Under the pieces are notes generated by a model. It did no database searches and was not told the origin of the DNA. It worked only from the letters and a program-made list of their open reading frames with translations. The position numbers and the translations under genes are program-made. DNA of 64,000 bases, taken from assembly GCA_963695545.1 (NCBI GenBank), contig OY968796.1, forward strand, positions 3,840,001-3,904,000, written 5' to 3'. Positions 28,635 through 38,361 of the stretch are shown one piece after another (the stretch's first letter is position 1; each line of letters opens with the position of its first letter). The stretch comes from Terriglobia bacterium. Its GTDB lineage: Bacteria > Acidobacteriota > Terriglobia > Acidiferrales > UBA7541.

Positions 28635-28869
28635 ATCATGCTCCGTGGGAGCGAGTGCGATCGAGGCGAGCGCGCTCGACTGAGACGTTAGCCAATGACG
28701 GAGGGAATGTAAAGCGCGGGCGAAAAACGGGATGATGGGCGAGATAGTGAGAAGCGAAGGCGGCGATTTCAGCGTTGAAATTGGAGAGTTGGGACAATCC
28801 GGATTTGCAGGTGGTGCGGGGCGGGTTCAAAAGCTCAAGTAATGGTTTGAGGTTGTGGTGAAGCGACAG

Positions 28870-29192
28870 CCTATACACCCCGGGTGTGATTTTCTTAAGT
28901 GCGGCAAACAAAGGAGATGCAGAAAAAGAGTGCGGATGAGTATGGAAACAAAGGGATATAATGGTTTTTGTTTTGAACGAGTTGCGCACTCTTTTGCAAG
29001 ACATTGATAACAAAGGGGCTGTAGAGGGGGTTTCGTGTAGATGGGCGCGGGATTTGGCAAGGCCGACGACGCGCAGTGACTCGGGGATGCGAGGAGGGAG
29101 TGGCGTTACGAGGATTTGCTGGCTGCTCACACCACCTTGTGGCATAGAAGTGAACACACGTCAATAGTAGTTTATGAGTATAGCATTCGAAT
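28870..29192 (-). repeat. Non-coding element (copy B), homologous to 9241-9651
   Basis: TACACCCCGGGT, GCGGCAAA, AAAAGAGTGCG/CGCACTCTTTT IR, shared 24-mer, GTCAATA..ATTCGAAT end. Confidence 0.7.
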
Positions 29193-29298
29193 GGAGTTCC
29201 GGCGGCGCCCCACGGCGCTATTCGAAACAATTGTGTCGTCCCTACGGGCTGGTTTTCGATGCCATCGCAATGCGGGGGCGCGGCGCCGGGCGTTCGAT

Positions 29299-30336
29299 TC
29301 AGGGTGCGGTGCCGCGCTTCCGAGAGCCGCGCGTCTCGACAGCATTCTGTTGCAGTATTTTCCGTGACACCGGGCGCAATTCCTGGAGATGCTCGCGAAG
29401 GTAAGGCATTAGGTGTTGCTTTTTACTCTTCCCGCGCTTGGATGTCTCGTCGTCCGTCTGAGAATCGCCTGGAATCAATTCCGGATTGCGCGCGGCCACG
29501 CGACGATAAATGGAGCGCCACATTTTCTTGGTTGTGGAGAGTGAGATGCCCAGCTCGTCGCTCAAATTTTCGTCGGTTCCTCCGGCGAGCGCGGAAAGCA
29601 GCAATCGCTGTTCGCTGCGGCTGAAGCCGAAACGGGGCACTTCATGCACGAATATCAACCCGATCCAGGATATGGGTACGCCGCGAGCCAACTCGCCGGT
29701 GGTGCCCACGATGTGCGGTTTCGTCTTAAGTTCTTCCAGATTTGTCGCCCCAAAATCGCCATAGCCGCCATCCGGGCACTTGAATAGCCGTATGCCGGTG
29801 TTCCGTATTCCCTCGAGATGCTCCGCGCTCTCGCCTTGCGCTACCAACTCCTTCAAGAGATAACCACGGTGCTCGTCGAGGAACGTAGTCATGAGCTCTT
29901 GCCAAACCTCCACGCGCCTGATGTCCGCCATGCGCACGGTGGAGGCCCACACGGCAAGGTTCAATCCGCCCTTGGAATTCGCCTCGCGCACCTGCTTTTC
30001 GGATAGCAGGGGAGAATCGCCGCGCGCAACGCGTCTGGCCATCTCCGGGCAGATCCAAAAAAGAGGCGGTGTTTTCAGTTCGCGCAGGAAATCTTCGGAG
30101 ACGAAAACGGTGACGCCAACTCCGACGATTCGGGCTCGTGCTCGACGCGCTGCTTCTTCAACTTCTTCAAACACCATCGCCGAGCAGAATCCATCCGTGG
30201 AAAGCAAGCGGAGCCAGGCAGTGCGCAAATCCGTAAGCGAGCCGCCATAGCGCGGGCCGCCAACTGGATGGGCCGCGACGAGCTCGACGCACGCGAGGAC
30301 ATCCTTCGGCTGCATAGGCCTATGCCGAATGCTCAT
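29299..30336 (-). CDS. Putative transcriptional regulator, GNAT-like N-domain plus LuxR-type HTH (paralog 1)
   Basis: C-terminal FSRSEQRLLLSALAGGTDENLSDELGISLSTTKKMWRSIYRRV has LuxR/NarL HTH spacing; colinear with two paralogs in the window. Confidence 0.75.
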   Translation of the reverse strand: MSIRHRPMQPKDVLACVELVAAHPVGGPRYGGSLTDLRTAWLRLLSTDGFCSAMVFEEVEEAARRARARIVGVGVTVFVSEDFLRELKTPPLFWICPEMARRVARGDSPLLSEKQVREANSKGGLNLAVWASTVRMADIRRVEVWQELMTTFLDEHRGYLLKELVAQGESAEHLEGIRNTGIRLFKCPDGGYGDFGATNLEELKTKPHIVGTTGELARGVPISWIGLIFVHEVPRFGFSRSEQRLLLSALAGGTDENLSDELGISLSTTKKMWRSIYRRVAARNPELIPGDSQTDDETSKRGKSKKQHLMPYLREHLQELRPVSRKILQQNAVETRGSRKRGTAP

Positions 30337-30371
30337 GCCGGATACCAACCTACGGTTTACAGCGGGGACTT

Positions 30372-30417
30372 ACCGCTCTTTTAGAGGGCTTGTTTATATC
30401 ATGGCTTCGTAGATACT
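30372..30417. promoter_or_regulatory. Divergent promoter with palindromic operator (copy 1)
   Basis: GCTCTTT-T-AGAGGGC (30375-30389), then TTGTTT-N16-GATACT; minus-strand TGATATAAA. Confidence 0.7.
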
Positions 30418-30448
30418 TCCACAACCCGCGAACTCGCTGGAGGTTACC

Positions 30449-31186
30449 ATGAAGGCCAAGCCAATTCTGAAACGCTGGGCGGTATTGCCAGGCATCCCCG
30501 CCATACTATTGGTGATCGGTTTATATACGCCCACCTCTCGTGCAAGTTCCGTTCCCCTCTGCGCCGAAACCGGATTCGAGCAGGCTGGCGAGTCTGGCTC
30601 AGCCGTGGTGGGCTCGTCGGCATCCGACGGAATGGGCGACACGGCTACGACGACTCCGAATTCCGTTACGGCGACCTCTTCAAATGCGAGCTCGGGCGCG
30701 TCGATTACATACTGCTTCGATGTAAGCGCGACAGCTGATGCGCCTGCGACATCGGTATACGTGGACATCGCGGCTTCCGCTACGGCCTCGGCCGCCGGGG
30801 GTGGGCCAAGCGCGCTAGCACTCGTGGATATCGGCGGGTTCGACAATTTGTCAGGCGTGGTAGCGTACGACAGTACTGATACACCAGAAGAGGCCACCGA
30901 TGATCAGTACTTGCTGGCTGTCGGTGCCGAGTACGACCTCGTAGTCACCGCATCCGCGAGCGGGGCGGGTGAGGGAGGCGCAACCGCGGAGGCCGATCCG
31001 TATATATATGTCGATCAAACCTTGAATGCGGACCCGGGAGACTATTCCATTGACGTGAGCGCAGGCGTTTCAAATGTGCCCCTTACGCCGCCGCCCGCAA
31101 ACGCACCGGAGCCGGGCAGCGCAGGCCTGCTTGGCGTAGGGCTGCTAGGGATTGTGTTCGCGGGACGGAAGCGGCTAATTGCGTAG
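30449..31186 (+). CDS. PEP-CTERM sorting domain protein
   Basis: GGAGG RBS, signal peptide, acidic body, APEPGSAGLLGVGLLGIVFAGRKR. Confidence 0.9.
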   Translation: MKAKPILKRWAVLPGIPAILLVIGLYTPTSRASSVPLCAETGFEQAGESGSAVVGSSASDGMGDTATTTPNSVTATSSNASSGASITYCFDVSATADAPATSVYVDIAASATASAAGGGPSALALVDIGGFDNLSGVVAYDSTDTPEEATDDQYLLAVGAEYDLVVTASASGAGEGGATAEADPYIYVDQTLNADPGDYSIDVSAGVSNVPLTPPPANAPEPGSAGLLGVGLLGIVFAGRKRLIA

Positions 31187-31197
31187 TACTCGGAAGT

Positions 31198-31241
31198 GGA
31201 GGCCTCCGCCACGGCGGACAGGTCTAGGCCTCCGCTACATA
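31198..31241. repeat. GTAG-type REP carrying a 20-nt nested insertion
   Basis: GGAGG[CCTCCGCCACGGCGGACAGG]TCTAGGCCTCCGCTACATA. Confidence 0.7.
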
Positions 31242-31273
31242 AACCTATGGGAGCAGCGCGGACGGCGCGAGGA

Positions 31274-33949
31274 TCATGGCTTTAGATCGGAGGGCCAATT
31301 CGTGACGACGGCGATGGGAGAAATGGCTTGCTGCGCTACGGGGGTGACGGCGAGAAAGCGCTGGCCGTCTGGGGTCACAACGTAGGTGGTGGGCTGAAAG
31401 GCACCGGACAGAAAATCCGCTTCGAAGAGAGGCTTGGGCGTGCCCGCTTCAAACTGGGGGCCATCAGTGGTCACGTCCACAGCCATCATCTTGTCGCCGG
31501 AAAGGAAGAAGAGCTCCTTGCCGTCGCGCCGCCACTGGGGGTGCTGTCCCCCAGCGGCGGAGACCTGCCATTTGCCGGTGCGATCTGGAAACGTCTGGAC
31601 GTAAATCTGGTAGGTTCCCGACTCGTCTGAGATGTAGGCGATGTAACGGCCATTGGGCGAGAAGAACGCTTCCCTGGTGTTGTACGCGGCCTGTACAAAG
31701 GGAATGGGCTTGCGGTCGCCGAAGAGCGGCAAAATCCAGAGATTGGCCGGCAAAACCGTGGTGTCGTACACAACGTAGCGACCATCGGACGACCAGTCAT
31801 TCACGCTCTTCTGCTGATCCTTGGATGCGAAGACAATCTGGGAATCGCCGATGCCGTTGGCCGCTTTCTCGTAAATATCCCGATTGCCGGTTTGTGTTGA
31901 ACTGAACAGAATTTGGCTGCCGCCCGGGGACCAAAGCGGGCTGATTTCGTCGGTAGGATCAAACGTAAATCTGGAAGCCGTGGCCCGCTTCAAATCGAAA
32001 AGCCAAATATCGCGCGTGCTCAAATGCGGATCGGCGATATCCACGGCGAGTCGATCTCCGTCCGGCGAAAGGGCCGGGCAGCAGTAAGCGGCGGGCTGCC
32101 CGAGCGTCCCGAGCTTCTTCCCGCTTCGATCAAACCACTGGAGCTCGGTCTGACTGGTCGCTCCCGCAGGAATGTAGGTCAGGATGCCGTTCTGAGAAGC
32201 CGAAAAAGACTGCGCGGTGTCAGGTCCAAGTTGCACGTAGGGATTGACGCCCTCGGCGATGGGGACGGCATCGCCTGTGGTCACCAGGCGCTGGGCATCG
32301 AAGGGCTGAGCCATCAAGGTCTCGCCGCGGGTATAGAGCAGATCGCCCGGAGGGGCGTATTCGGCGCCTCCGTCGGCGTTCAGCAAGCATTTCGTTTCGC
32401 TTGAGTCGAGCGAGCCAACACAGAGCCACGGTTCGTTGAGTGCGGTGGAGCGAATGGAGGCGTAGAGGAAATGGCGACCGTCCGGCAGGAACCAAGGGTA
32501 TGCCTGCGAGATTTCCCGGACCGATCGATCAAGCGTGGTGAAAGGGACGGGCTCGCCGCCGGCATCGGGAACTTTCACGAGTGGGCCGCCGAGACTGAGG
32601 ACAATCACGCCATCGCTGTTCCAGCTTGCGCCAAATCCTCCCACTGCGTCGCAGAGCGTCTGCGGGGTTCCGCCCGAGACTGCCACCTTCTTGAGCGTAG
32701 CTCCGTCAAAAAAGCCCAGGTAATGGCTGTCGGGCGACCAAAAAGGGCGACGCGCACCGTCGGTTCCCGCCAGCGGCTGCGCGGCGACATTATTGAGCGC
32801 GCGCAACCATAGTTGGCGGGTTCCGTCCTTGGTGAGGGCTGTAAAGGCCAAGAGACGGCCGTCGGGCGAGAGGCTTACTGCTCCCCAAGTCGCATCCTCG
32901 GACGGGAGGGAGAAGAGGAAGCGGGTGACGCTGGGTTTGGGCTGGTTGAGGTACGGACGAAGGTACACAAAGACCAGGGCCGCGGCGACGAGCAGCGCCG
33001 CGCAGGCGGTCGCGGCCAGCGCCCATGCGATTCTTTCGCGGCTGCGACGGTGGGCGACGACGGGCGCGGCGACGCCGGCTTGCGAGCCGGCTTCGGAGAT
33101 CCATTTCAATTCGTCGCGAAGGTCTCCGGCCGATTGCCAGCGATCGTCGGGATCTTTCGCGAGACATTTCTTCACGACGCGGTCGAGCGCGGGCGGCGTC
33201 ATGGGTTGAAGCGAGGAGATGGGCGGCGGATCGACCTCAAGAATTTTCGCGATCAAACTGGCTTGACTCTTGCCCTCGAAGGCTTTTTTGCCCGTGGCCA
33301 TCTCGTAGATCACGGTGCCGAATGAGAAGATGTCCGTGCGCGCGTCTGCTTCCCTGCTTTCGAGTTGCTCGGGCGCCATGTATTGCAGCGTGCCGACGAT
33401 GGTGCCTTCGGCGGTGATCGGACGATCGACAGCGGGCAACGTGGTGAGCGTGGCCGACGTCACGGCCGTTTCGCGCGTGAGTTTCGCCAGCCCGAAATCG
33501 AGCAGCTTCACGCCGGATTTGGTGAGCATGATGTTGCCAGGTTTCAGATCGCGATGGGTGATGCCGTTGCGGTGGGCTTTGTCGAGAGCGTCGGCGATTT
33601 CGATGGCGTACTGCAACACTTGCTCGGCGGGGAGCGGGCCTTTGAGGAGGCGCTGCGCGAGCGTTTCGCCTTCGACGAGCTCCATGACCAGATAGTCTGT
33701 GCCGGCCTCGCGGCCGATATCGTGGAGCGTGCAAATGTGCGGATGATTCAGGCTGGCGATGGTGCGGGCTTCGCGCTCGAAGCGCTCGCGCAAATCGGGG
33801 CGGTCGGCGAGATGCGGCGGCAAGACTTTGATGGCTACGACTCGGTCGAGGCGAGAGTCGCGGGCGCGATAGACTTCTCCCATGCCGCCAGCTCCGAGCG
33901 GAGCGACGATTTCGTAGGGACCTAGTTTCGTGCCATTCGCGAGGGGCAT
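31274..33949 (-). CDS. Hanks-type Ser/Thr protein kinase with TM segment and TolB-like (PD40) beta-propeller repeats
   Basis: LGAGGMGEVY, VAIKVL, HRDLKPGN, DFGLAK, GTLQYMAPE, TM, repeated (W/L/F)SPDG motifs. Confidence 0.95.
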   Translation of the reverse strand: MPLANGTKLGPYEIVAPLGAGGMGEVYRARDSRLDRVVAIKVLPPHLADRPDLRERFEREARTIASLNHPHICTLHDIGREAGTDYLVMELVEGETLAQRLLKGPLPAEQVLQYAIEIADALDKAHRNGITHRDLKPGNIMLTKSGVKLLDFGLAKLTRETAVTSATLTTLPAVDRPITAEGTIVGTLQYMAPEQLESREADARTDIFSFGTVIYEMATGKKAFEGKSQASLIAKILEVDPPPISSLQPMTPPALDRVVKKCLAKDPDDRWQSAGDLRDELKWISEAGSQAGVAAPVVAHRRSRERIAWALAATACAALLVAAALVFVYLRPYLNQPKPSVTRFLFSLPSEDATWGAVSLSPDGRLLAFTALTKDGTRQLWLRALNNVAAQPLAGTDGARRPFWSPDSHYLGFFDGATLKKVAVSGGTPQTLCDAVGGFGASWNSDGVIVLSLGGPLVKVPDAGGEPVPFTTLDRSVREISQAYPWFLPDGRHFLYASIRSTALNEPWLCVGSLDSSETKCLLNADGGAEYAPPGDLLYTRGETLMAQPFDAQRLVTTGDAVPIAEGVNPYVQLGPDTAQSFSASQNGILTYIPAGATSQTELQWFDRSGKKLGTLGQPAAYCCPALSPDGDRLAVDIADPHLSTRDIWLFDLKRATASRFTFDPTDEISPLWSPGGSQILFSSTQTGNRDIYEKAANGIGDSQIVFASKDQQKSVNDWSSDGRYVVYDTTVLPANLWILPLFGDRKPIPFVQAAYNTREAFFSPNGRYIAYISDESGTYQIYVQTFPDRTGKWQVSAAGGQHPQWRRDGKELFFLSGDKMMAVDVTTDGPQFEAGTPKPLFEADFLSGAFQPTTYVVTPDGQRFLAVTPVAQQAISPIAVVTNWPSDLKP

Positions 33950-34066
33950 TGGTTGGACGCAGTATACGCCGGAAGAATTATGCCGGCGCGATAAACCGAT
34001 GCGCGCGCGGATTGGGGCGGAGGAGTTCAAGCATTCAGGCGTGGTGGCTCTTGCGCGCAAAAACAA

Positions 34067-34095
34067 GATGGAGGCCTGAAGGCCTCCGCTACATA
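34067..34095. repeat. GTAG-type REP
   Basis: GATGGAGGCCTGAAGGCCTCCGCTACATA, identical to 14107-14135. Confidence 0.85.
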
Positions 34096-34184
34096 AGACC
34101 GTGCGACGTTACTTTGTAATCGTCCCGTGGTTTAGTGGGCGCGGGCTGCGTCACGAGGTGGTTTGGCGCCGCAGCTTTCGATTC

Positions 34185-35201
34185 TTAGGGACGCGGCGAT
34201 GGCGCGGCGACGCGACCGATGAGTTTTCGCGAAAAGGGGCGCAGTTCCTGAAGATGCTCGCGCAGGTAAACCACGAGACGCTGCTTCTTGCCCCTTCCGC
34301 GCTTGGATGTTGCTTCGCCCGACTGGGAGTCGCTGGGGACCAATTCCGGATTGATCGCGGCTACCCGGCGGTAGATCGAGATCCACATTTTCTTGGTTGC
34401 GGAGAGCGAGACACCCAGCTCGTCGCTCAATTCCTCGTCGGTTCCTCCGGCGAGCGCGGAGAGCAGCAATCGCTGCTCGCTGGGGCGGAATGCGAAGCGT
34501 GGGGGCTCGAAGAGAAAGAGATAGCCGATCCAGGTTCCGAGCTGCTTTTGGGCGATCTCACGAGTGAGGCCGGAGATGTGGGGCCGCGAGAGAATGTCCT
34601 GAAGATCTTGTTCCTCGAAAGCGCCATAGCCGCCGTGCGCGGAATTCCACATGCGGCCGCCGGTGTTGCGCATCCCGATCAAGTGCTCCGGGCTGTCGGC
34701 TTGGCCTACCAATTCCTTCAAGCGAAAGCCGCGGTGATCGTTGAAGAACGCGGCCATGAGCTCGGCCCCTACTTCCGCGCGCTTAACATCTTCGCCGCGA
34801 ATGCAAACGTGCCACATCACAAGATTCAGGCCGCCCCGCGAATTCGCTTCACAAACTTGCTTTTCGGAGAGTAGCGGAGAATCGCCGCGAATCACGCGCC
34901 TGGCCAGTTCAGGGCCAATCCAAAAGGATGGCGGCGTTTTCACTTCGCGCAGGAAATCGTCGGAGGCGAAAACGGAGGCGCCGACGCCGAGCAGCCGCGG
35001 CCGCGCGCGGACGGCTCCTTCGTCAACTTCTTCAAACACCGATGTGCCGCAGAAACCGTTGGAGCGAAGCAAATGAAGCCAGGCCGGGGCTAAATCCGCG
35101 ATGGATTTGGAGTATCGCGGTCCGACAACGGGATCCGCGGCGACGATTGCGACGCACTCACGGACATCGTTCGGGCGCATGGGGCGGTGCCGAATGCTCA
35201 T
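34185..35201 (-). CDS. Putative transcriptional regulator, GNAT-like plus LuxR-type HTH (paralog 2)
   Basis: MSIRHRPM..; FRPSEQRLLLSALAGGTDEELSDELGVSLSATKKMWISIYRRV. Confidence 0.75.
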   Translation of the reverse strand: MSIRHRPMRPNDVRECVAIVAADPVVGPRYSKSIADLAPAWLHLLRSNGFCGTSVFEEVDEGAVRARPRLLGVGASVFASDDFLREVKTPPSFWIGPELARRVIRGDSPLLSEKQVCEANSRGGLNLVMWHVCIRGEDVKRAEVGAELMAAFFNDHRGFRLKELVGQADSPEHLIGMRNTGGRMWNSAHGGYGAFEEQDLQDILSRPHISGLTREIAQKQLGTWIGYLFLFEPPRFAFRPSEQRLLLSALAGGTDEELSDELGVSLSATKKMWISIYRRVAAINPELVPSDSQSGEATSKRGRGKKQRLVVYLREHLQELRPFSRKLIGRVAAPSPRP

Positions 35202-35259
35202 GTGCAGATCCCAAGCTCCATTTGGCGGCTAGTGGTACCAGGACTCATGCTGCGCGCGC

Positions 35260-35305
35260 ACTGCCCTTTTAGACCGCTTGTTTATAGCATCCTGCTATGC
35301 ATAAT
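35260..35305. promoter_or_regulatory. Divergent promoter with palindromic operator (copy 2)
   Basis: GCCCTTT-T-AGACCGC (35263-35277), TTGTTT-N16-CATAAT; minus-strand TGCTATAAA. Confidence 0.7.
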
Positions 35306-35384
35306 TCCACAATTCACGTTCTCAGTAATTGGCGACGGTGTGGCGATCCCCGCGCGGCACCCTCGAATGTTCACTGGAGGATCA

Positions 35385-36293
35385 ATGACAGCGGAATCGG
35401 AGCTTCATCAGCATTCGCGTCGCGAAGGCCAGCGGCAAACAGCGAAAGAAATTGCCACGCGACACGCATCGCCACGCTTGGCGCTGTTCACTTTGCTGGC
35501 AATCGCCGTGGCGCTGGCGGCCCCGTGCGCATCGCGCGCGGATGATTTGCCGGCGGCCACACTCGGGCAGGTGATGCAAACTATAACCCCGTACCCGCCG
35601 GGCCCAATCCTCGAAGGTCCCGGCCTGTCGAGCTTCTCCTTGACCAACCCGGGGTTTGAAGGAGGGACCGCCACAGCTACCACCTATGCGTCCTATGCTG
35701 ACGGGACGGCGACGATTGTGGGAAGCGGCACAACGTCGGGGGAGGCAAACGTGCCAGAGATCACGGCGACGGTCGGAGTGAGTTACTCCTTCGAGATCGT
35801 CGGCCCGGAAAGCGACGTGGAAGTGCCGATCATCATCTCCGCAAGCGCGAGCACTTCGGTCACCGGCAAAGGGTCCGCGACCGTAAACACCGCCGTCGGT
35901 GGCGATGTACTTAGCGGCGGGGGTACCCTCAACGCTTGCTCCGAGGTAGGCTTTTCGGCTTGCACTTACCCGTCGTCCTTTTCAGGATCGATCGACGCTG
36001 TCGTTTATTCGAATGACCCAGAGTATTCCATTAACATTGACGCCTCCGGAATGGGATACGATACGAGCTCTTGGACCTTTTCTGCCGATCCTTCGATCGA
36101 GATAGACCCAAGCTTCGCGGACGCGGACGAATACTCGATCGTATACAGCGCCGACGATGCGGCTTCAACCGGGCCGCCGACACCGCCCCCGACTACTGCG
36201 CCAGAGCCTTCGGGCCTCGCCATGCTTGGAATTGGCTTGCTCGCTCTGGTGGGTTTGAAGCTCTCGAAACTCGAAGCGCGCGCCGAAGCGTGA
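35385..36293 (+). CDS. PEP-CTERM sorting domain protein
   Basis: GGAGG RBS at the 35385 ATG, extended signal peptide (..CASRA/DD), APEPSGLAMLGIGLLALVGLKLSK. Confidence 0.88.
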   Translation: MTAESELHQHSRREGQRQTAKEIATRHASPRLALFTLLAIAVALAAPCASRADDLPAATLGQVMQTITPYPPGPILEGPGLSSFSLTNPGFEGGTATATTYASYADGTATIVGSGTTSGEANVPEITATVGVSYSFEIVGPESDVEVPIIISASASTSVTGKGSATVNTAVGGDVLSGGGTLNACSEVGFSACTYPSSFSGSIDAVVYSNDPEYSINIDASGMGYDTSSWTFSADPSIEIDPSFADADEYSIVYSADDAASTGPPTPPPTTAPEPSGLAMLGIGLLALVGLKLSKLEARAEA

Positions 36294-36371
36294 CGAATAT
36301 TCGTGCCGTGCCGCGATTTGGTCGCGTTGGGCGCCCGGCGCGAATCTAGCGGGAATCCGCCACCAACTCGT

Positions 36372-37418
36372 TCAAATGAAGTCCGATGCAGTTCTATCCT
36401 GGTCGCAGCTTCGCTCGCGCGCGGTGTTCTCTTGCAGTATTTTTCGCGAAACCGGGCGCAGTTCTTGGCGATGCTCGCGGAGATAGGCGATCAGGCGTTG
36501 CTTCTTATTCTTCCCGCGCTTGGATGCCTCTCCGTTGGCCTGCGAATCGCTGGGGACTAATTCCGGATTGATTGCGGCTACGCGGCGGTAGATGGAGCGC
36601 CACATCTTCCTAATTGTGGAAAGCGAGACGCCCAACTGGTCGCTCAATTGCTCGTCGATTCCGCCGGCGAGCGCGGCAAGCAACAATCGCTGCTCGCTTG
36701 TGCTAAAGCCGAAACGCGGCGGCTCGTAAAGAAAAAGAGAACCGACCCATGAGCCGAGTTGCGTTTGCGCTATCTCGCGCGTGTACCCGGAAATGTGCGG
36801 CTCCCTAACGATTTCGTGCAGGTTTTCCCCATCGAAATCGGTATAGCAGCCGTCCGAAGATCTCAACAGGCGCCCACCGCTGCCCCGCATACCCTCCAAG
36901 TGCTCCGGGCTTTCGCCATGCGCCACCAGCTCGTTCAAAAGGAAACCGCGGTGCTCATCGAGGAACGCCGTCATCAGTTCGGCCCAAACATCTGCACGCT
37001 TAATATCTTCCACGCGGATACACGCTTGCCACACGGCAAGGTTGAGGCCGCCGCGCGCATTTGCGTCGCGCACCTGCTTTTCGGAAAGCAGCGGAGAATC
37101 GCCGCGCATCACGCGTTTCACCAACTCGGGACCGATCCAGAGGAATGGCGGGGTTTTCAATTCGCGGAGAAAATCGTCGGAAACAAATACGGTGACGCCG
37201 ACCCCGAGCAATCGAGCGCGAGCGCGGCCCGCGGCTTCGTCGATTTCTTCGAACACGACGGCAGAACAAAAACCGTTGGAGGAAAGCAACCGAAGCCAAG
37301 CGGGGCGCAGTTCTGCGAGCGCGTCGCCATAGCGCGGCGCGACAATTGGGTGCGACGCGACGATCTCGACGCACTCGCGGACATCCTTCGGCCGCATGGG
37401 GCGATGCCGGATGCTCAT
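36372..37418 (-). CDS. Putative transcriptional regulator, GNAT-like plus LuxR-type HTH (paralog 3)
   Basis: MSIRHRPM..; FSTSEQRLLLAALAGGIDEQLSDQLGVSLSTIRKMWRSIYRRV. Confidence 0.75.
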   Translation of the reverse strand: MSIRHRPMRPKDVRECVEIVASHPIVAPRYGDALAELRPAWLRLLSSNGFCSAVVFEEIDEAAGRARARLLGVGVTVFVSDDFLRELKTPPFLWIGPELVKRVMRGDSPLLSEKQVRDANARGGLNLAVWQACIRVEDIKRADVWAELMTAFLDEHRGFLLNELVAHGESPEHLEGMRGSGGRLLRSSDGCYTDFDGENLHEIVREPHISGYTREIAQTQLGSWVGSLFLYEPPRFGFSTSEQRLLLAALAGGIDEQLSDQLGVSLSTIRKMWRSIYRRVAAINPELVPSDSQANGEASKRGKNKKQRLIAYLREHRQELRPVSRKILQENTARERSCDQDRTASDFI

Positions 37419-37482
37419 GGACGGATCCCACGCCCGGTCCAGGTACTAGACGTACTAGAAATGCTCCAGGCCGATGCGCCTT

Positions 37483-37528
37483 ACTGCCCTCTAAGAGGTC
37501 TTGCTTATAGCACTCTCCGTTGCATAAT
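37483..37528. promoter_or_regulatory. Divergent promoter with palindromic operator (copy 3)
   Basis: GCCCTCT-A-AGAGGTC (37486-37500), TTGCTT-N16-CATAAT; minus-strand TGCTATAAG. Confidence 0.7.
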
Positions 37529-37680
37529 TCCAACAATTCACCATTTCCAAACGCGCTACGGTGCGGCGAAAGCGAATGGCAAAAGATTCCGCGGCGTAGA
37601 TGGAATTGTTTCGGGTTGCTCGGAGGAAGTGAAATCGGATGAGGATTATATTTAGCAGCTCAAGTTAAGGAGCCACGACG

Positions 37681-38361
37681 ATGATGAAGGCCCAGTCATT
37701 CCGTTTCGCGCTGTGCACATTTGGAATTATTGCTTTCTGCCTTGTGCTCTCGCCAAGACCTTGCGCGGCCGACCCGACCGCGATCGGCCCTTCGACTAGC
37801 AGTACCTTGGAGGCTGCCTCCTATTCTTATGAGATTCCGGGTGCGCTCGTGGTGAGCGGGTACGCAACAGGCAGCACCTACGATGCCGGCTTCGAAGGCG
37901 CGGTATTCTGTGGTGGCGACGGTTCATGGTCTTGGTGCAGCGGCGGCGCAACGAGTTATAGTCTTGACGTTCCTGGGGTCTTTGAGGGGGCGCTCTACGA
38001 CACTGGCGCCTCCGTAACGCTGACACAGGCCTCCGTGGATAGTCCGATCGTTCTCACCTATGTTGTGGACGGCTACACGGTGGTGTTCGATCTGTATGAA
38101 GACCCGGTTTTACTCTCCTCGCTCACGTATGAATCGCCCGAAGTAGACGGAGTCAGCTACGTTAACCTTACGGTTACAGGCGGCTGCTATGACAACAGCG
38201 CGACGCCATGTACACCCGCATCCTCCACGCCGCCGCCGTCGAACGCGCCGGAGCCAGCGTCCCTCGGTCTGCTCGCTGCGGGCCTGGCGGGATTGGGATT
38301 GATGGTCGGATTGCGCCGGCGGAAAGAACTGCTGCATCAGCGGAGTTTGGCGGCCGCGTAG
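37681..38361 (+). CDS. PEP-CTERM sorting domain protein
   Basis: AGGAG RBS, signal peptide, APEPASLGLLAAGLAGLGLMVGLRRRK. Confidence 0.9.
   Translation: MMKAQSFRFALCTFGIIAFCLVLSPRPCAADPTAIGPSTSSTLEAASYSYEIPGALVVSGYATGSTYDAGFEGAVFCGGDGSWSWCSGGATSYSLDVPGVFEGALYDTGASVTLTQASVDSPIVLTYVVDGYTVVFDLYEDPVLLSSLTYESPEVDGVSYVNLTVTGGCYDNSATPCTPASSTPPPSNAPEPASLGLLAAGLAGLGLMVGLRRRKELLHQRSLAAA

Follow-up and report, generated by a model that had tools for sequence, protein, structure and literature searches.

Predicted GNAT-LuxR regulators with a likely operator of their own and exchangeable exported cargo: an undescribed family from soil Acidobacteriota

A 64,000-nucleotide stretch of a Terriglobia bacterium genome (assembly GCA_963695545.1, contig OY968796.1, positions 3,840,001–3,904,000; the whole stretch is called the window here) carries three genes for similar proteins, each placed head-to-head with a gene for a PEP-CTERM surface protein, and raises the question of what these proteins are and whether they control the genes diverging from them. 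An earlier interpretation made from the letters alone (the sequence-only reading) saw in them a modular switch, one regulator for each surface protein, and possibly a regulatory system for exosortase substrates. Our analysis points to a real and undescribed family of LuxR-type one-component regulators with an unusual predicted GNAT input domain, likely an operator of their own and exchangeable exported cargo, of which PEP-CTERM genes are one recurring class. No description of such a GNAT-LuxR family was found in Creative Commons-licensed PMC papers or bioRxiv, a scope outside which most subscription journals lie.

The regulator genes occupy the minus strand at 29299..30336 (regulator 1, 345 amino acids), 34185..35201 (regulator 2, 338 amino acids) and 36372..37418 (regulator 3, 348 amino acids), as the sequence-only reading had correctly placed its three colinear paralogs, and their products are 63–69% identical in pairwise comparison. 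All three start with MSIRHRPM as it had noted; the common YLREHxQELRPxSRK, which it put at the very end, sits 12–22 residues before the C-terminus. Facing them on the plus strand are cargo 1 (30449..31186, 245 amino acids), cargo 2 (35385..36293, 302 amino acids) and cargo 3 (37681..38361, 226 amino acids), all of which combine a hydrophobic leader at the N-terminus with a C-terminal tail of PEP motif, transmembrane segment and basic residues. Cargoes 1 and 3 score 23.5 and 23.3 bits against Pfam PF07589, over the cut-off of 20.7. Cargo 2, at 15.5 bits, is under it and is termed PEP-CTERM-like; its tail is visible, and a 62% identical homologue at locus L103 passes with 26.8 bits. The pairing of each regulator with a different PEP-CTERM gene was borne out. 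Similarity between cargoes 1 and 2 is weak (E values 9e-4 and 6e-7) and cargo 3 resembles neither beyond the tail, in keeping with the contrast drawn earlier between similar regulators and divergent cargoes.

What kind of protein is encoded here is answered mainly by structure prediction. Regulators 1–3 match no Pfam or NCBIfam family, and a sequence search of the PDB with a regulator returned helix-turn-helix (HTH) matches only at E≥0.27. An AlphaFold2 model of full-length regulator 3, built with 115 homologues, has a mean predicted local distance difference test score (pLDDT) of 92. Residues 1–231 of this model align to GNAT folds (best Z 12.6, root-mean-square deviation (rmsd) 3.0–3.1, 164–165 residues aligned), many GNATs being tied and the GNAT-like domains of CurA, SxtA and GphF standing among the top ties, and Foldseek with the N-terminal domain gives four GNAT matches at E≤0.001. 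Residues ~232–325 are predicted to form a LuxR-type four-helix HTH with an insert. When the C-terminal domain is modelled alone (pLDDT 72), the first 20 of the 50 listed chains are of the LuxR/NarL/GerE type (best Z 8.8, rmsd 2.0, 66 residues aligned). The Pfam GerE model (PF00196) is matched by five of 52 distant members, at best with an E value of 6.7e-6, and by none of the three window proteins, while the autoinducer-binding domain PF03472 has no Pfam match in the window proteins or the 52 distant members. The Atlas agrees with both fold assignments, and regulator 1 receives the same architecture by homology to regulator 3. The regulators are thus predicted to be a GNAT-fold domain fused to a LuxR-type HTH. 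A homodimer prediction scored 0.31 against a mark of 0.42 and carries no weight for or against a dimer.

If the C-terminal domain binds DNA, where would it bind? The sequence-only reading had noticed a common intergenic motif, and this motif is real: in the window it lies at 30373..30389, 35261..35277 and 37484..37500 (putative palindromic operators 1–3, to which no strand is assigned). De novo motif search returned one strong motif, a pseudo-palindrome with the core YCT-TTT-AGR, followed by TTG(T), 16 nucleotides (nt) and a TAnAAT-like hexamer. Of 116 dereplicated upstream regions, 102 have a scoring match, against 0–1 of 116 per shuffle (20 shuffles) and none on the other strand; the match lies 30–40 nt from the regulator start in 78 of the 102, TTG follows the palindrome directly in 91, and A-11/T-7 stand at the 16-nt spacer in 72. 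If the last hexamer is a -10 element, the palindrome is centred at -43; the lux box is centred at -42.5 (PMC4471428, PMC3376562). In the window, the elements so predicted on the plus strand are a weak sigma70-type promoter of cargo 1 (TTGTTT-16-GATACT, 30390..30417), recognized through family conservation and missed by a strict consensus scan, with operator 1 centred at about -43, and promoters of cargo 2 (TTGTTT-16-CATAAT, 35278..35305) and cargo 3 (TTGCTT-16-CATAAT, 37501..37528). On the reverse strand, a TGn-TATAAA-like element would place the start of the regulator transcript inside the palindrome; the corresponding extended -10 elements are predicted at 30393-30401, overlapping cargo promoter 1, and at 35281-35289 and 37504-37512.

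Further features tie the motif to the protein family. Symmetric positions of the palindrome are complementary above shuffles (0.54 against 0.24 for positions 4/14 and 0.70 against 0.50 for 5/13). The core can be made out by eye in six of eight low-scoring distant entries and is sometimes flipped in distant members, as it is, followed by TTG, beside a fourth paralog in the window genome; none of 14 tandem downstream copies has a core of its own. Among 98 regulator-site pairs, the canonical core accompanies 88 of the 90 regulators with KK in the predicted recognition helix and one of the eight without it (from about six lineages). Regulator 3 is exceptional on both sides, having no KK (K270R) and the non-canonical core CTCTAAG. 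Mutual information ranks helix residue 267 first for operator positions 2 and 4, a link that was set aside since the z values of spacer controls come close (up to 4.2). Taken with the predicted HTH, this pattern makes it very probable that the family protein is a DNA-binding regulator of the conserved palindrome. A wider regulon was rejected, the 4.16-Mb genome holding only one weak site (score 11.3) outside the three cassettes.

The identity of the controlled genes was approached through homologous loci, 79 from genomes and 80 from metagenomes, the best of 179 and 249 hits, respectively. Neighbouring genes were called with a home-made gene caller, and export was assigned by a home-made signal-peptide rule. 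The 166 regulator entries include 14 tandem downstream copies and 21 with too little upstream sequence, leaving 131 that were scored. In 121 of these the nearest upstream gene is divergent, against a genome baseline of 1035 of 3313 genes. Export-like genes make up 86 of the 111 divergent genes within 900 nt; the corresponding figures are 249 of 944 (26%) for genes of divergent pairs in the genome, 35 of 98 for downstream neighbours and 271 of 718 for the remaining genes of the loci. A PEP-CTERM tail is carried by 23 of the 111, compared with 11 of 3315, 0 of 98 and 23 of 718 in the whole genome, downstream and elsewhere in the loci. With regulators clustered at 70% identity (108 entries), exported cargo predominates in 39 of 55 clusters, and any PEP-CTERM cargo occurs in seven. 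A Pfam scan of 74 representative neighbours found PEP-CTERM in 12 and many proteins without any family; the other classes are propellers, Kelch, FG-GAP, beta-helices, Ig-like domains, cytochrome c proteins, a PAP2 enzyme, a molybdo-enzyme and an RHS protein.

The enrichment of PEP-CTERM genes among divergent neighbours that the sequence-only reading had anticipated is therefore present, but the rule that emerges is an exported protein and not an exosortase substrate. Its suggestion of a system for exosortase substrates does not hold: about four-fifths of the cargoes have no PEP-CTERM tail, as do the cargoes of all but the seven clusters, and seven of ten PEP-CTERM genes checked in the window genome, which has about a dozen, have no motif, the other three being those of the cassettes. 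Nor is one regulator per surface protein general, since some cargoes head four to six PEP-like genes and 14 of the 166 regulator entries are tandem copies.

Several loci depart from the simple arrangement in their own ways. At L081 (2025-5894), L083 (2143-5454) and L069 (2718-5893) the cargo heads four to six co-oriented PEP-CTERM-like genes, several of them paralogous and some broken; these runs are possibly regulated operons or cassette reservoirs. In one clade (L044:1766-3274, L161:1404-2822) the divergent partner is an AMP-binding acyl-CoA (coenzyme A) ligase, a weak hint at an acyl-type ligand, and in another (L032, L093, L111, L113) it is a conserved protein of 66–71 amino acids directly upstream, belonging to no known family. 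Tandem regulator pairs or triples occur in L022, L025, L026, L029, L034, L041, L094, L101, L104 and L107, several with overlapping stop and start codons; they have one operator in common, and heteromers are possible.

How would such a unit work? In the mechanism that we favour, the protein would be a one-component transcription factor whose predicted GNAT-fold sensor governs its predicted LuxR-type HTH. It would bind the adjacent conserved palindrome, presumably as a dimer on the two-fold site, activate the divergent gene for an exported protein from about -43 of a predicted weak sigma70 promoter, and repress its own, overlapping promoter; the signal for the probably non-catalytic GNAT domain may be a small acyl-type metabolite. 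The model builds on direct observations of the gene layout, the family-wide motif in its fixed geometry, the export of most cargoes by the home-made rule and the turnover of cargo behind the promoter. As a complete scheme of activation and autorepression, we place it somewhat above even chance.

The sign of regulation is the point at which the nearest alternative enters. The regulator could instead repress its cargo, bound beside the -35 element and blocking RNA polymerase until a ligand releases it, as some LuxR proteins do act as repressors freed by their ligand (PMC4471428), and the TTG of the -35-like hexamer begins right where the palindrome stops. However, the site lies upstream of the -35 and -10 elements rather than on them, at the activator position of a lux box, and the promoter is too weak for a consensus scan, and we regard repression of the cargo as unlikely, if the likeliest of the alternatives.

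The favoured activator model also takes the GNAT domain as probably a sensor rather than an enzyme, in light of the predicted fold and its conservation pattern. The acetyl-CoA loop of GNAT motif A (consensus R/Q-x-x-G-x-G/A) is present in four of 98 and one of 52 family sequences and in none of the three window proteins, and the motif A region is the most variable part of the protein, with indels and 36–60% identity among the three paralogs against 79–83% in the HTH. An active acyltransferase, using acyl carrier protein (ACP)-bound acyl groups, or a GNAT-like decarboxylase would give the protein two functions, enzyme and regulator, so that it produces or alters its own signal. The GNAT core is indeed intact, confidently modelled and furnished with near-invariant polar residues (Y30, E57, K88, N120, N126, H156, E163), and the structural ties with CurA, SxtA and GphF fit such an activity. 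Acyl-homoserine lactone (AHL) synthases and FeeM-type synthases use the GNAT fold without the classic CoA loop; both lie outside the 50 listed structural matches of residues 1–231, a listing that excludes nothing. Against an enzyme stand the absence of motif A in 94 of 98 sequences, its region being hypervariable and rich in indels, the lack of any match to TIGR03694 (FeeM-type exosortase-associated N-acyl amino acid synthase) in the window proteins or the genome, and the lack of a common biosynthetic theme among the cargoes, which together render it improbable.

A regulator that controls only itself, with exported genes as passengers on a constitutive outward promoter in variable islands, would explain why the distance of the motif is fixed to the regulator and not to the cargo, and the setting is suitable, since the 10-kb block is an accessory island and the loci are generally rich in exported genes (271 of 718). 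The cargo-facing TTG and -10-like element are nevertheless conserved at fixed register to the palindrome, and the export bias upstream is twice that downstream (86 of 111 against 35 of 98), so that this explanation strikes us as a shade less probable still than an enzyme.

The weakest alternative, in which the motif is a PrsR enhancer with a sigma54 site, or an RNA terminator hairpin, and the adjacent gene is unrelated, can point to one exosortase (PF09721, 137.7 bits, G000:C1:1524943-1525725) and many NtrC-like proteins in the genome and to a terminator-like flag on site 1, yet is very improbable given that PrsK (TIGR02916) and PrsR (TIGR02915) reach at best 114.5 and 427.2 bits against cut-offs of 300 and 502.6 in a genome 93.8% complete, that the -24/-12 sigma54 pattern appears in none of ten PEP-CTERM upstream regions and two of 135 family regions, that the motif tracks the regulator family and not PEP-CTERM genes, and that its arms are short and mismatched, its core invariant yet flippable, and no plus-strand gene ends there. 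Control apart from PrsK/PrsR-sigma54, implied by the undescribed system that the sequence-only reading had thought possible, is supported by the same searches.

A number of observations weigh against the favoured model. On the protein side, sequence comparison of the window regulators with HTH and GNAT models gives nothing significant, the HTH model is of limited confidence (pLDDT 72) with a Z near 8 that is modest for a helical domain, and Foldseek with this model ranks the LuxR/NarL/GerE family first but gives no match at E≤0.001. On independent pairs, the link between recognition helix and core, found post hoc, goes the same way in 3.3 and the opposite way in 0 of five (p 0.25), and that of residue P267 finds no support. 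Among further loci, 12 of 22 entries pass the motif matrix, at least one of the 12 repeating an earlier locus and two being near-identical, and the misses are two tandem copies and eight distant members. The three best motif sites genome-wide are the three cassettes, a rank that is partly circular as the training set of the matrix includes these sites. The arm compensations at 4/14 and 5/13 miss significance once kinship is handled (p 0.06 and 0.5), outer positions 1–3 have none, and most sites have two to four mismatches in their 7-bp arms. The reverse -10 element does not have the usual last T, with TG in 68 and TA in 69 of 102. The strict sigma70 scan returned no promoter in the cassette region, which fits a weak activator-dependent promoter, but the promoter itself is read from conservation alone. 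Finally, 25 of the 111 cargoes fail the export rule, including an acyl-CoA ligase and a transposase, and the best-hit sampling of loci over-represents close relatives.

The cargo behind the promoter changes readily. The 114 cargoes (111 and the three of the window) make up 46 families. Regulator pairs that are ≥80% identical number 83, and in 46 of them the two cargoes are not homologous; some of these cargoes may have been mis-called or be broken. In most of 15 pairs picked by hand, the DNA stays similar across the regulator start and the motif, and the similarity ends 70–290 nt upstream of the regulator, with breakpoints either within the leader or some 25 codons into the cargo. A FastTree tree of 158 regulators (FastTree was used for all trees) requires ten changes of the PEP-CTERM label among entries with known cargo. 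Regulator, operator and promoter thus appear to move as one unit that gains new cargo at junctions within the 5' leader or the cargo's first codons, which upholds the modular unit with cargo exchange proposed by the sequence-only reading. A bolder extension would make this unit a portable regulated expression slot that spreads among soil Acidobacteriota and captures unrelated exported genes, the GNAT fold having been converted into a diversifying receptor for small molecules, with each cargo answering an acyl-type cue of its own. We offer this tentatively, as a possibility that we ourselves rather doubt; if true, it would be a signal receptor made from a fold that elsewhere makes such signals.

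The cassettes themselves lie in variable ground. The segment 28634-38652, between a LytS-like kinase gene and ribA, is an insertion hotspot, and its 10-kb block is accessory: in genome G004 the flanking kinase and ribA genes abut without an insert, and in G001 its place is filled by 13 kb of other DNA that carries transposases and exported proteins. Between cassettes 1 and 2, a serine/threonine kinase gene with PD40 propeller repeats (31274-34066, minus strand, likely start near 33949) belongs to the accessory block and is outside the cassette unit. A non-coding dispersed repeat of ~380 bp lies at ~28870-29255, in a gap (28636-29298) with 68 blastn matches in the genome; its best other genomic copy is 78% identical over 386 nt, and it is possibly an element resembling a miniature inverted-repeat transposable element or a structured RNA. 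A short hairpin repeat of the repetitive extragenic palindromic type at ~34050-34100 gives 55 blastn matches within the genome, and its contig depth is high in the soil runs. Soil DNA contigs from four runs of one study cover the cassette region, one of them matching 34902-38040 without differences; these runs may be the window's own source, so their contigs give no independent support.

As to the age and spread of the family, a recent in-situ triplication was rejected because two of the three regulators have closer sisters at other loci. Regulator 1 is sister to that of L102 and regulator 2 to that of L104; the L104 cargo is 63% identical to cargo 2, and for the L102 cargo, likeness to cargo 1 is confined to the N-terminus and was judged by eye, BLAST with the mature portion finding no similarity. 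All three window copies fall in one nine-entry clade, which with the sisters elsewhere indicates older duplications, so that the earlier proposal of expansion by cassette duplication stands for older events and not for a fresh local one. The fourth paralog in the window genome (one contig) is distant, with 28–29% identity, and diverges from an exported IPT/propeller protein without a PEP-CTERM tail. A profile search at E≤0.001 found 1940 clusters (50% identity), of which 668 reach 1e-30. Distribution is patchy: within the order the family occurs in 36 of 301 genomes and five of 34 genera, and within the genus in one of five genomes; in a phylum sample searched with a narrower profile, 11 of 401 genomes match, six of them by weak HTH-only matches, and for the phylum of G439 no match turned up in the other 400 genomes sampled. 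Homologous loci come mostly from soil Acidobacteriota, the closest homologues being titled Candidatus Acidiferrales and uncultured Acidobacteriota, and a few are titled Alphaproteobacteria, Roseiarcus or Dormiibacterota, by transfer or mis-binning, both being possible. Phage association was dismissed, viral contigs having yielded one distant relative from 30 candidate stretches; that homologue (L222:571-1695, 27% identity) lies near a terminase-like gene and has no obvious divergent exported partner in the 650 nt upstream.

The practical consequence is that a large unannotated regulator family gains a candidate binding site and promoter geometry that are directly testable with synthetic DNA in a laboratory host. 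The family also hints at how poorly cultured soil Acidobacteriota control and reshuffle accessory surface proteins.

Among known systems, PrsK/PrsR/PrsT-sigma54 control is alike in that PEP-CTERM genes come with a regulator dedicated to them and a conserved DNA motif upstream, whereas the present cassettes are local, one-component, sigma70-like and mostly linked to non-PEP cargo. Haft et al. 2006 (PMC1569441) describe PrsK/PrsR as confined to Proteobacteria, with further regulators and motifs still to be found, and our family would supply one of these outside Proteobacteria. EpsA (TIGR03020), an XrtB/PEP-CTERM-associated LuxR-domain regulator that heads an exopolysaccharide operon (PMC13751637), likewise combines a C-terminal LuxR domain, the absence of an autoinducer-binding domain and an exosortase context; the window proteins miss TIGR03020 and one of 52 distant members matches it weakly (E 6.5e-4), and by this sequence comparison the two are different families. 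With GNAT and GNAT-like domains (CurA/SxtA/GphF, N-acetyltransferases, FeeM-type synthases) the regulators have in common the predicted fold of residues 1–231, and they differ in their ~10% identity, mostly absent motif A, HTH fusion and failure to match TIGR03694. The closest parallel in design is with the LuxR/FixJ/GerE one-component regulators (LuxR, TraR, SdiA, VqmA, EL222, VpsT). No LuxI-type divergent partner was present among the 74 neighbours scanned, the HTH has a ~15-residue insert before helix 4 and in most members scores below the Pfam GerE cut-off, and the site is short, a pseudo-palindrome around an invariant core. Yet the predicted C-terminal four-helix HTH, the N-terminal input domain and the palindrome near -43 are all alike, and in place of an autoinducer-binding, PAS/LOV or receiver domain, the GNAT fold would join the known input domains of LuxR-type regulators.

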